A DNA stretch of 6,734 nucleotides, from positions 1 through 6,734 of IMG/VR virus record IMGVR_UViG_648276647_000003. One strand, written 5' to 3'. This document shows positions 2 through 4,668 of this stretch, one piece after another. Both the position numbers and the translations under genes were made by a program. This DNA is from a virus (Duplodnaviria; Heunggongvirae; Uroviricota; Caudoviricetes). Each line of letters begins with the position of its first letter. Position 1 is the first letter of the stretch. The notes under the pieces are model-generated. The model searched no databases, was not told where the DNA came from, and worked only from the letters and a program-made list of their open reading frames with translations.

Positions 2-193
2 CCCTGTCTTGCGGTGGTATCGCGGCGTCATATGGACGGATGGGTGCCGGTATTTACCCAGGGCGAACTGATGTTTGAGGATATTGACTTGCTGGTCATG
101 CTGCAGCTGGTGGCGCGGGTGGTCGCCGATTCGCTGGGAAATTTTTTGCAAGGACTCCCTACCAAAGAGACGCCCATCCCGCCAGCGGAATAA
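2..193 (+). CDS. Tail assembly chaperone (lambda gpG / P2 gpE analogue), C-terminal fragment; 5' end lies outside the window
   Basis: Frame is open from the window edge to TAA at 191-193 (...ELMFEDIDLLVMLQLVARVVADSLGNFLQGLPTKETPIPPAE*). It lies directly upstream of the tape measure gene, contains a slippery heptamer, and is overlapped by an open -1 frame, which is the classic chaperone arrangement. This frame is absent from the supplied ORF track because it has no in-window start. Confidence 0.5.
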   Translation, partial: PCLAVVSRRHMDGWVPVFTQGELMFEDIDLLVMLQLVARVVADSLGNFLQGLPTKETPIPPAE

Positions 194-390
194 CCTTCAA
201 TAGCCTGCCGGGTGGTGAAGATTTTATTCTTCGTCCGGCGCTTGCCTTCCATATTGACCAGAAAGATCTTAACAGTGGTGCGGTAGATCTCTGTCGCATC
301 GCGCTTCTTAATGACTACCTTGATATGTGCGAGGACAACGATGTCCGGGTAGAAAAATGGAGAGAGGATAATGAACGCCGAGACTATTAA
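2..390 (+). CDS. Predicted -1 frameshift fusion product of the tail assembly chaperone (gpGT / P2 E+E' analogue); slip at 142-148, extension ends at TAA 388-390
   Basis: The -1 frame is closed upstream by TGA at 85-87 and open from 88 to 390. After a slip on T TTT TTG it reads FFARTPYQRDAHPASGITFNSLPGGEDFILRPALAFHIDQKDLNSGAVDLCRIALLNDYLDMCEDNDVRVEKWREDNERRDY*, overlapping the tape measure ATG (371) by 20 nt. Confidence 0.4.
142..148 (+). promoter_or_regulatory. Programmed -1 ribosomal frameshift slippery heptamer T TTT TTG (X XXY YYZ in the zero frame)
   Basis: Zero-frame codons are aat(140-142) ttt(143-145) ttg(146-148), so the heptamer is correctly phased, 45 nt before the chaperone stop, and the -1 frame is open downstream. 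Confidence 0.5.
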
Positions 391-2359
391 AGATTTCCTC
401 GTCTCGCTTGGCTTCAGTGTGGATGATGCAGGAGCGAAAAAGTTCGGTTCTGTCCTCGCCGGTACAACTGCAAATGTCATCAAAATGGGACTGGCCGTTG
501 AAGGAGCTGCGCTGTCCGTGGTGGCCTTCACGGCTAAGATCGCCTCCGGCCTGGATAATCTTTACTGGGCGTCACAGCGCACCGGCGCGACGGTCCAGGG
601 AATTCAGACTATTGGCTATGCGGTTTCGCAGGTTGGCGGTAGCGTGGACGCTGCGCGATCTTCTCTGGAAAGCCTCTCCCGGTTTATTCGTAACAATCCC
701 GGTGCAGAAGGCTTTCTGAATCGCCTGGGCGTACAGACCCGTGATGCCAGCGGTAACATGCGTGACATGGCCGCTATCTTTACGGGCGTTGGACAGAAAC
801 TCAGCAGCATGCCGTATTACCGGGCTAACCAGTATGCGCAGATGCTGGGCATTGACGAAAATACCCTTATGGCGATGCGCCGGGGTGTGGGTGGTTTCTC
901 CGGGCAGTACAGCGCAATGGCGAAAGCTATCGGCTTCAATGCTGACGAGGCGGCCAGAAGCTCCAACAAATTTATGACCTCCCTGCGTGAGTTTGGCGCG
1001 ATGGCAGGCATGGCCCGTGACAAAATCGGCTCTAATCTTGCGGGTGGACTTGCGGGTTCGTTGGACACCCTGCGCCGCCATATCCTGGACAACTTCCCGC
1101 GTATCGAGCAGACCCTGACGAAAGCCATAAAAGGCATTCTGGCGCTCGGGGATATTATCGGGCGGCTGTTCTTCAGACTGATTGAAGGAACATCAGGCCT
1201 CATCACCTGGTGGCAATCGCTGGATAAGCAAACGCGGGAGTTGATCTCGCTGTTTGGCGCACTGACGATTGCGCTGCGCATTCTGAACAGTACGTTCTGG
1301 ATGTCGCCGATTGGCCTCATTACCGCGCTGGCGGCGGGGATTGCCCTCCTGTGGGAGGACTATCAGACCTGGAAGGAAGGCGGCGACAGCCTGATTGACT
1401 GGGGCAAGTGGAAACCGGAGGTTGATGCCGCGCTGAAGATGGTTCGTGACCTTAAAACGACCGTTAACGACCTGGTGAAAGCGCTGGCGAAACTGCTCAA
1501 TATTGACCCCAAATCATGGTCCCTGAAGTGGGATTTCAGCAACTTCATCGACCAGATGGGCGAATTCAGCAAAATGCTGAACATGATCGCCGACCTACTC
1601 AACGCTATCAAAGATGGCCGCTGGGTTGATGCCGTCAGCATCGGCAAACAGATACTTAATCAGGGCAGCGAAAATCCGTCAGCGATGCCGATGGTTACAG
1701 ACAGCGCTAACAGTACTGCCGACTGGATTAAAGAGCACTGGGGATTCGATCCCCGCAGCGTGGGCCGGACGGTACGCGGCTGGTTTGGTGATGATGAGCC
1801 GGAACAATATGCACAGGCTACGAAACGAGGAGAACGGAATAACAATCCGGGAAACCTTAATTTTGCTGGTCAGGTAGGGGCTTCTCTTGAACGCCCGGGC
1901 GGGCGATTTGCCAGATTTGAAACTGCTTTTGATGGATTACGGGCTCTTGCTCGTCAGTTAATGCTGTACGCCGGACGGGGAATAAACAGTGTGGAGAAAA
2001 TTATCTCTACCTGGGCACCTGCGTCTGATAATAACAACACAACTGCGTATATCAGGGCTGTATCGCAACGACTGGGAGTGGATCCCCGGGCTGCCCTGAA
2101 TATGAGCGATCCGCAAACCATGTCAGCATTGATGAGCAGCATTATCCAGCATGAAAATGGAAGAAATATCTATTCTCGAGAGCTGATTAATAAGGCTGCC
2201 GTAGCGGGAATTAGTGGCAAAGTGACAGAGGTTAACCAGCAAAATACCTACCACATTTACGGTGGCGGAGATCCGCACGCTGTCGGTAATGAGGTTGCAC
2301 GTCGGCAACAGTCTGCAAATGCTCAGGTCATGCGAAGTAATCAGGTGAGGGTGGGTTAG
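371..2359 (+). CDS. Phage tail tape measure protein (662 aa)
   Basis: Long ORF immediately after the chaperone/frameshift pair, with RBS ggagagagg a few nt before the ATG. The N-terminal two thirds is Ala/Gly/Leu-rich with hydrophobic segments (e.g. LISLFGALTIALRILNSTFWMSPIGLITALAAGIALLW) typical of tape measure proteins; a distinct C-terminal domain follows. Size and position fit a contractile-tail tape measure. Confidence 0.85.
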   Translation: MNAETIKDFLVSLGFSVDDAGAKKFGSVLAGTTANVIKMGLAVEGAALSVVAFTAKIASGLDNLYWASQRTGATVQGIQTIGYAVSQVGGSVDAARSSLESLSRFIRNNPGAEGFLNRLGVQTRDASGNMRDMAAIFTGVGQKLSSMPYYRANQYAQMLGIDENTLMAMRRGVGGFSGQYSAMAKAIGFNADEAARSSNKFMTSLREFGAMAGMARDKIGSNLAGGLAGSLDTLRRHILDNFPRIEQTLTKAIKGILALGDIIGRLFFRLIEGTSGLITWWQSLDKQTRELISLFGALTIALRILNSTFWMSPIGLITALAAGIALLWEDYQTWKEGGDSLIDWGKWKPEVDAALKMVRDLKTTVNDLVKALAKLLNIDPKSWSLKWDFSNFIDQMGEFSKMLNMIADLLNAIKDGRWVDAVSIGKQILNQGSENPSAMPMVTDSANSTADWIKEHWGFDPRSVGRTVRGWFGDDEPEQYAQATKRGERNNNPGNLNFAGQVGASLERPGGRFARFETAFDGLRALARQLMLYAGRGINSVEKIISTWAPASDNNNTTAYIRAVSQRLGVDPRAALNMSDPQTMSALMSSIIQHENGRNIYSRELINKAAVAGISGKVTEVNQQNTYHIYGGGDPHAVGNEVARRQQSANAQVMRSNQVRVG

Positions 2360-4323: not shown

Positions 4324-4668
4324 ATGAAACGATGGATATTTTCATTGCTGGCGTTAGTGTCTGTTGGTGTAAGTGCAAACACCATAACGATGCAATGCGG
4401 CAACTTTCGTATGGATGCGATCCCTGACTCATTATTTAAAATCAATGGCGAAACAGTAACGTCCCAAAAAGTAAAAATGTTGGGTAAAGACGGTACAGGC
4501 ATGCAGATCAAAATGGGGCTGATGCCTGCCAAAGATGGCCACAATTATGGGTTCGAGTATATCCATCGACCGGGCACCGAAACGCGTTTCCTGAACGTCC
4601 AGCTTCTGCAGAACAGCATGGACGCGCCTAGAATCATCGGGTCTTTCCCATGCAAAAAAGTTAATTAA
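4324..4668 (+). CDS. Small secreted/periplasmic protein, paralog A (114 aa precursor); cargo (moron) gene, function unknown
   Basis: ATG at 4324 is preceded by an agagagg RBS and starts 2 nt after the hub stop. N-terminus MKRWIFSLLALVSVGVSA-NTITMQC is a typical Sec signal peptide with an AXA-type cleavage site and no lipobox. Mature protein has Cys near its N-terminus (QCG) and near its C-terminus (FPCKK). Lower GC than flanking genes by eye. The track's longer 4261 start would overlap the hub gene and place the signal peptide internally. Confidence 0.7.
   Translation: MKRWIFSLLALVSVGVSANTITMQCGNFRMDAIPDSLFKINGETVTSQKVKMLGKDGTGMQIKMGLMPAKDGHNYGFEYIHRPGTETRFLNVQLLQNSMDAPRIIGSFPCKKVN

Follow-up and report, generated by a model that had tools for sequence, protein, structure and literature searches.

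What, if anything, is encoded in the apparent gap that separates the tail assembly chaperone gene from the tape measure gene of a tail module in which the chaperone gene overlaps a long open reading frame (ORF) lying one base back? The window analysed here (the whole stretch of DNA, 6,734 nucleotides (nt) in length) carries the tail module of a SEN34-like (Brunovirus-type) contractile-tailed myovirus prophage of Escherichia coli, and the locus in question occupies positions 2-390. The gene order is sheath (DUF3383), tube (DUF3277/PF11681), chaperone, a 177-nt apparent gap, and tape measure. An initial annotation of this DNA had placed a −1 programmed frameshift at the end of the chaperone gene, and comparison with homologous loci leads us to regard positions 2-390 as very likely the programmed −1 frameshift site of a Phage_TAC_15 tail chaperone gene, with a DUF6889 domain in the long form of the protein.

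The zero-frame codons at 134-151 read CTG GGA AAT TTT TTG CAA, and the frame ends at TAA 191-193. Read from these codons, the heptamer T TTT TTG (142-148), to which the initial annotation had assigned the shift, does lie in the X XXY YYZ phase of the chaperone frame. The −1 frame (codon starts 1 mod 3) is closed by TGA 85-87 and then open to TAA 388-390, that is, for 82 codons counted from 142 or 80 past the heptamer, so that it passes the zero-frame stop and ends 20 nt inside the tape measure gene (ATG 371). All coordinates of the initial annotation proved correct, as did the phase and position of the heptamer, but T TTT TTG is not the only slip site on offer, being the third of three overlapping in-phase heptamers after G GGA AAT (136-142) and A AAT TTT (139-145). 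No other in-phase heptamer lies in the overlap zone 88-190, and the last of the three is separated from the zero-frame stop by 14 codons. In the nine plus-strand ORFs of the window, which total 2010 codons, there are eight in-phase heptamers, three of which form the 136-148 cluster; each member of the cluster is followed by 80-82 open −1 codons, versus 0-6 for the other five. The predicted fusion is 136 + 80 = 216 amino acids long whichever heptamer is used. The junction previously proposed, ...GNFF-ARTPYQ..., would result from a shift on either of the two upstream heptamers or from a slip in the P site only, whereas a tandem slip on T TTT TTG would give ...GNFL-ARTPYQ...; the predicted tryptic junction peptides are VVADSLGNFFAR and VVADSLGNFLAR, respectively, and the zero-frame tryptic peptide at the slip run is VVADSLGNFLQGLPTK.

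The genes on both sides have the identities that such an arrangement requires of them in the initial annotation. The upstream fragment (63 residues) is the end of a tail assembly chaperone, since it matches Pfam family PF21822 Phage_TAC_15 (7.9e-11; 43 bits versus a cut-off of 22; profile positions 74-125 of 127) and its full-length homologue matches phrog_1688 'tail assembly chaperone' (3.4e-64). Recovery of the whole gene, which had been suggested as a check, was possible from E. coli prophage L001, which is 97.8% identical to the window: the gene has 150 codons there and is the RefSeq coding sequence 'phage tail assembly chaperone' (L001 5740-6192). The region as such was found in 375 of 5,426 complete E. 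coli genomes (~7%). The downstream gene (371-2359) matches phrog_2276 'tail length tape measure protein' over its full length (6.7e-283), which bears out its designation as tape measure gene; its homologue in phage SEN34 is annotated as tape measure, and a Shine-Dalgarno-like AGAGG stands at 363-367, ahead of its ATG.

The −1 extension behaves as coding sequence. Its C-terminal end matches Pfam family PF21829 DUF6889 (45-46 bits versus a cut-off of 23.9; profile positions 3-40 of 40), and it also matches phrog_4364, of unknown function (2.9e-17), while no NCBIfam model matches either the chaperone or the extension. Among loci gathered from 46 species-representative genomes and from phage records, the extension is alignable, 77-81 codons long and free of internal stops in 46 distinct homologues from many enterobacterial genera, and conservation of the −1 protein reaches phages of Acinetobacter, Bordetella, Burkholderia and Ralstonia. 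Pairwise differences at −1 codon positions 1/2/3 are 0.28/0.24/0.53 in the part that does not overlap other frames, a pattern indicative of purifying selection on the −1 frame. The −1 ORF usually overlaps the tape measure gene by 11 nt in the relatives; the overlap is 20 nt in the window because of a TGA-to-CGA change. Ahead of the slip run, variation is greatest at zero-frame position 3 (0.37-0.54, versus 0.05-0.25 for position 2), whereas over the 38 nt past the run it is greatest at zero-frame position 2, which is −1 frame position 3 (0.475). Since the periodicity flips at the slip run, selection reads the −1 frame from the run on, even within the 3′ end of the chaperone gene, and this switch is the most direct evidence that the −1 frame is reached from the chaperone frame.

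The slip run itself is nearly invariant. The codons GGA AAT TTT TTG are unaltered in 42 of 45 distinct homologues, the exceptions being an ATT (L031), a TTA (L023) and, in an L046 copy that is broken in any case, a T5 deletion, and per-site divergence across 136-148 is about zero. Apart from the single TTA, no synonymous alternative occurs in the run codons, although Gly, Asn, Phe and Leu all have them and synonymous changes are seen in the neighbouring Asp, Ser and Leu codons; the homologues thus indicate that the run is constrained as nucleotides and not only as protein. Slightly upstream, the Arg-Val codons CGG GTG (window 115-122, CGG GTG GT) are invariant in 44 of 45 distinct homologues, synonymous sites included. 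They sit 13-19 nt upstream of the heptamers, and P2 has GGTGGTCGG directly before its TTTTTTG; CGG GTG GT could be a Shine-Dalgarno-like (GGTGG) upstream stimulator, or the likeness could be a coincidence.

Which of the three heptamers would be used is less clear, and the relatives are instructive in this respect. Five distinct enterobacterial sequences (L014, L020, L039, L042 and the L047 fragment) have CTC or CTA as the Leu codon and are without G GGA AAT. Only G GGA AAT is present in Salmonella L031 (GGGAAATATTTTG) and in Bordetella phage IFTN9 (GGGAAATACT), the first two heptamers are present in Acinetobacter phage Ab105-1phi (GGGAAATTTTATT), Burkholderia phage Magia (GGCCCTTTTATC) retains just C CCT TTT, which corresponds in position to the middle heptamer, and a Ralstonia phage (GGGTTTTTTC) has G GGT TTT and T TTT TTC. 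All of these retain the homologous −1 ORF, and each has at least one in-phase heptamer on the L-G-N/P-F codons. Because relatives without TTTTTTG still have the −1 ORF, TTTTTTG is not established as the site used. Efficient motifs in E. coli include H_HH.U_UU.Y and R_RR.U_UU.Y (PMC4066793), rules that would therefore place A_AA.U_UU.U among the efficient ones. Motif rules from E. coli thus favour A AAU UUU (139-145), and the precedent of P2, which shifts at TTTTTTG in E. coli (PMC3091744), favours U UUU UUG. It may also be that the recoding signal is a 13-nt composite, covering the Leu-Gly-Asn-Phe-Leu codons from the last base of the Leu codon CTG (its first G) onwards, that more than one of the three heptamers is used, and that different lineages rely on different ones; as a corollary, DUF6889/phrog_4364 would be the 'T domain' of Phage_TAC_15 chaperones. 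We regard this proposal as evenly balanced between being right and wrong. If true, it would imply two junction variants (NFF-A and NFL-A) and a means of tuning the ratio of short to long form.

Support for the two parts acting together comes from proteins in which they are joined without any recoding. In an exhaustive profile-free search with the fused sequence as query, 7 of the top 150 representatives (50% identity clusters) were proteins of 190-210 amino acids, 34-41% identical to the query, that combine Phage_TAC_15 and DUF6889 in a single reading frame, and for three of these fusions (L137, L138 and L139) continuous ORFs were confirmed on contigs. It follows from these in-frame fusions that TAC_15 and DUF6889 act as one polypeptide. 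Two other 'fused' database proteins (P0001 and P0020), which are nearer to the window, contain several frame switches arising from multiple indels and were set aside as assembly errors. On L139 (231-1285; ENA contig ERZ22921146), a 159-amino-acid Phage_TAC_15 gene lies directly upstream of a 191-amino-acid TAC_15+DUF6889 gene, so that the short and long forms appear to be two genes with no recoding. On L138 (1038-4664; Logan contig ERR10900000), a gene for a 208-amino-acid fusion is followed immediately by Dit-like, Pam3_gp18 plug, spike and sheath-initiator genes; no tape measure gene lies in between, an unusual arrangement given that the chaperone presumably acts on the tape measure.

In its layout the locus conforms to the conserved G/GT-type arrangement that the initial annotation had recognised in it. 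Xu, Hendrix and Duda reportedly described this class of −1 frameshift in 2004, with short and long proteins that are made in a fixed ratio, are both needed and are absent from virions. The window has overlapping ORFs between the tube and tape measure genes; the downstream ORF is without initiation signals of its own, 44 of 47 homologues having no start upstream of the conserved motif; and both the slip site and the −1 ORF are conserved despite divergence. The event is not new to the family. Klebsiella phage Mulock (CPT_Mulock_014/015; GenBank MN098327) and Burkholderia phage Magia (CPT_Magia_015/016) both carry a joined coding sequence named 'tape measure chaperone frameshift product', and in both the chaperone homologue likewise has the tube gene on one side and the tape measure gene on the other. 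The run GGGAAATTTTTTG of the window recurs unchanged in Mulock, whose −1 ORF also ends just inside the tape measure gene, and in Mulock-like relatives the chaperone protein is ~65-70% identical to that of the window. Magia differs in that the equivalent codons contain just C CCT TTT and its chaperone is longer, at 186 amino acids. The frameshifts of both phages are known from annotation, the Mulock genome paper making no mention of one, whereas the window's own lineage is annotated without a frameshift, in RefSeq as well as in SEN34. The frameshift in homologous genes is thus already known via GenBank annotation, and the window holds an ordinary instance of a known recoding event.

The closest functional parallel is found in P2 E/E+E′ (FETUD operon), where the RefSeq record marks the 'site of −1 translational frameshift'. 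P2 is also a myovirus, with the same order of sheath, tube, chaperone and tape measure, and has TTTTTTG as in the window; in both P2 E′ and the window extension a conserved module of ~40 residues lies at the C-terminal end and the frame overlaps the start of the tape measure gene (by 8 nt for P2 gene T and 20 nt in the window). However, P2 has a single heptamer, six codons before the stop, where the window has three, and the proteins differ in size, P2 E having 91 amino acids and an extension of ~57, compared with 150 and 80 for the window. The P2 families PF10109 Phage_TAC_7 and PF06528 Phage_P2_GpE gave no match to the window proteins in hmmscan even at E ≤ 10, whereas the P2 proteins, used as controls, matched their own families at 2e-12 and 2.1e-22, and alignment of the DUF6889 profile with P2 E′ by hhalign gave a probability of 0.5%, with no detectable homology. 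The window locus thus resembles P2 E/E+E′ in the way it works, while belonging to different sequence families. Phage lambda, a siphovirus, provides the other precedent: a low-level −1 shift in G/GT gives a short and a long chaperone with a common N-terminus. The lambda slip heptamer is G GGA AAG, from which the first heptamer of the window, G GGA AAT, differs in the last base only. The AAU A-site codon of the window heptamer is expected to be weaker in E. coli than the AAG of lambda (PMC4066793).

It could be argued that the −1 ORF is a separate small gene translated from a start of its own, which is how it is treated in RefSeq, where PGAP calls such a coding sequence in E. coli genomes: a 31-amino-acid 'DUF6889 family protein' at window 298-390 (L001 6297-6389), without a frameshifted chaperone, and each of the ten E. 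coli records listed gives this product name at the match. Gene callers also give Met-initial DUF6889 proteins of 58-78 amino acids in several genera. The RefSeq coding sequence, however, begins at ATC, and looks like a way of fitting the family match without a start codon. The sole ATG, GTG or TTG in the −1 frame of the window is ATG 325, which lies inside the DUF6889 domain, cuts it and leaves 21 codons. A canonical start upstream of the conserved LPxG motif occurs in only 3 of 47 distinct loci, and no Shine-Dalgarno-like sequence was found at the first starts of the −1 ORF in these loci. Conservation and −1 periodicity moreover begin at the slip run, inside the chaperone gene, and the in-frame fusions known elsewhere also speak against separate initiation, which we consider very improbable.

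Another possibility is that the long form arises mainly by transcriptional slippage, RNA polymerase adding one U on the T6 run (142-147) and so producing the same ...NFF-ART... fusion. The T6 run is indeed present, and T7 and T5 alleles occur in assemblies, which makes the run indel-prone at the level of DNA or of sequencing. In the T7 allele (P0025; L135 1897-1910) chaperone and extension are fused in one frame, with a product of 213 amino acids; in the T5 allele (P0092; L136 1603-1615) the extension falls in the +1 frame, in a genome that also has a truncated tape measure. Each allele is known from one contig, and as natural variants both were discarded, being likely homopolymer indels or errors, or products of prophage decay. 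Efficient bacterial transcriptional slippage requires runs of ~9 or more A or T. The −1 ORF is retained without a long homopolymer in Salmonella L031, the Bordetella phage and Magia, and the P2 precedent is ribosomal; slippage is treated in PMC4066793 only for longer runs, A7 and U7. Transcriptional slippage as the main source of the long form thus seems to us every bit as improbable as a separate start, and ribosomal frameshifting is preferred over both.

The 167-amino-acid minus-strand ORF (28-531), which the initial annotation had dismissed as an antisense artefact, might instead be a real gene of the gap between chaperone and tape measure, since, of the ORFs across the gap that have a start codon, it is the longest, and 15 of 47 loci keep its frame intact, with no more than one stop. 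It has no family match in Pfam, PHROGs or NCBIfam, stays open for at least 150 codons in just 5 of 47 distinct loci (there is one stop in ten, as in the window, and 2-6 in most others), and would run antisense through three plus-strand coding regions. Codon for codon it is the reverse complement of the −1 frame, so that its most variable sites would be first codon positions; the variation pattern fits plus-strand coding, and 28-531 is a stop-poor frame in register with the −1 extension. That it is a gene is hardly credible, and its dismissal stands on these comparative data, but the frameshift alone does not show it to be an artefact. An equally untenable idea, that the open −1 frame and the heptamers are coincidental and that no long form is made or needed, may appeal to the fact that stop-free runs of 80 codons arise by chance at ~52% G+C (a crude estimate of 4.8% for at least 82 codons is inflated by genes that lie in the −1 frame of the gene preceding them), but is effectively refuted by comparison of the loci, given a −1 protein conserved across genera and matching a Pfam family, invariant synonymous sites in the slip run, and −1 ORFs of no more than six codons at the other five in-phase heptamers.

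Several points nevertheless weigh against programmed frameshifting at this locus. The support for a frameshift in the TAC_15 family is comparative throughout. No heptamer is universal among the relatives compared, and U_UU.G and heterogeneous AAU A-site codons are weak shifters in E. coli (PMC4066793), so that T TTT TTG may not be the heptamer used. Nor was a stimulatory RNA element found: single-sequence folds were no better than those of shuffled sequences (z = −0.59 and 0.03), the fold of a 26-sequence alignment reached −0.59 kcal/mol with 0 covarying pairs, and Rfam gave no match. The site accordingly does not belong with those −1 frameshifts that have a conserved hairpin or pseudoknot 5-9 nt past the heptamer (IS3/IS911 or dnaX type); P2 and most phage chaperone sites are likewise without downstream structure (PMC3091744). 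Finally, a search of the PDB by sequence found no relative of the fusion protein, and an AlphaFold2 model of the fused protein P0025, built from a 45-row alignment, has a mean predicted local distance difference test score (pLDDT) of 55, with 27-42 in the extension. With such values in the extension, structure gives a tube-binding role no support.

That ribosomes shift here, how efficiently, on which heptamer, and to which partner the extension binds is what we infer in the following scheme. Most ribosomes would stop at TAA 191-193, giving the short form of 150 amino acids (Phage_TAC_15), and a minority would slip back 1 nt on the run at 136-148 and read on to TAA 388-390, giving a fusion of ~216 amino acids. 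If the two forms behave like lambda G/GT and P2 E/E+E′, the N-terminal domain common to both would coat the product of the next gene, the tape measure protein. The extra domain of the rare long form would bring in the tube protein, causing the tube to polymerise around the tape measure, and both forms would presumably leave the assembly and be absent from the virion. In the model for lambda, tape measure binding resides in the G part and tube protein binding in the T part; the ratio is ~1:30, that of P2 being 2-3 times higher (PMC5009743).

The main value of these results lies in annotation. In the RefSeq records examined the long chaperone form is absent and the 31-amino-acid ATC-start protein is called instead, and a literature search returned no mention of DUF6889. 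If DUF6889/phrog_4364 were recognised as the part of Phage_TAC_15 chaperones that is reached by frameshifting, a domain so far without an assigned function would acquire one, and annotation pipelines could then join the two coding sequences. Otherwise the locus is one more well-supported example of the nearly universal G/GT rule in long-tailed phages, with the three overlapping heptamers as a small twist; what is added to existing knowledge is the correction of annotation for DUF6889 and a slip signal made up of three overlapping candidate heptamers.

Table 1. Coordinates in the window of the features at the chaperone/tape measure junction
Feature	Position	Strand	Family match
Tail assembly chaperone gene, 3′ end (63 codons + stop), zero frame	2..193	+	PF21822, phrog_1688 via full-length homologue
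Zero-frame stop TAA of short chaperone form	191..193	+	
Slippery run GGGAAATTTTTTG, three overlapping in-phase heptamers	136..148	+	
−1 frame extension ('T-like' domain of long form), 80 codons (ARTPYQ...NERRDY) + TAA 388-390	148..390	+	
DUF6889 domain (extension residues 38-75)	259..372	+	PF21829, 3.6e-12
Tail tape measure gene, 662 amino acids	371..2359	+	phrog_2276
Antisense ORF, 167 amino acids, not a gene	28..531	−	

Some minor features of the window may be added. A promoter scan of positions 1-700 found no promoter-like site, and a terminator scan of the same stretch found three weak terminator-like hairpins (0.8 being expected in 700 nt), none of them placed to matter. One, at 275-312 (12 pairs, G-T allowed), is followed by a weak T tract and falls within the −1 extension, 127 nt past the slip run; the equivalent stretch of SEN34, the one relative compared, differs, and the hairpin is probably due to chance. 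In the tape measure protein, residues ~442-650 (the C-terminal third) match the endolysin/transglycosylase families phrog_873 and phrog_7182, which is why RefSeq names the whole protein 'lytic transglycosylase'. 3′ of the tape measure gene follow, in order, genes for a Dit-like protein, plug, hub, spike and wedge. The baseplate module also holds an ORF of 114 amino acids (window 4324-4668) with a signal-peptide-like N-terminus (MKRWIFSLLALVSVGVSA...), which matches phrog_3443 (unknown function); the start given in the ORF list, GTG 4261, is too far upstream and makes the ORF overlap the hub gene.

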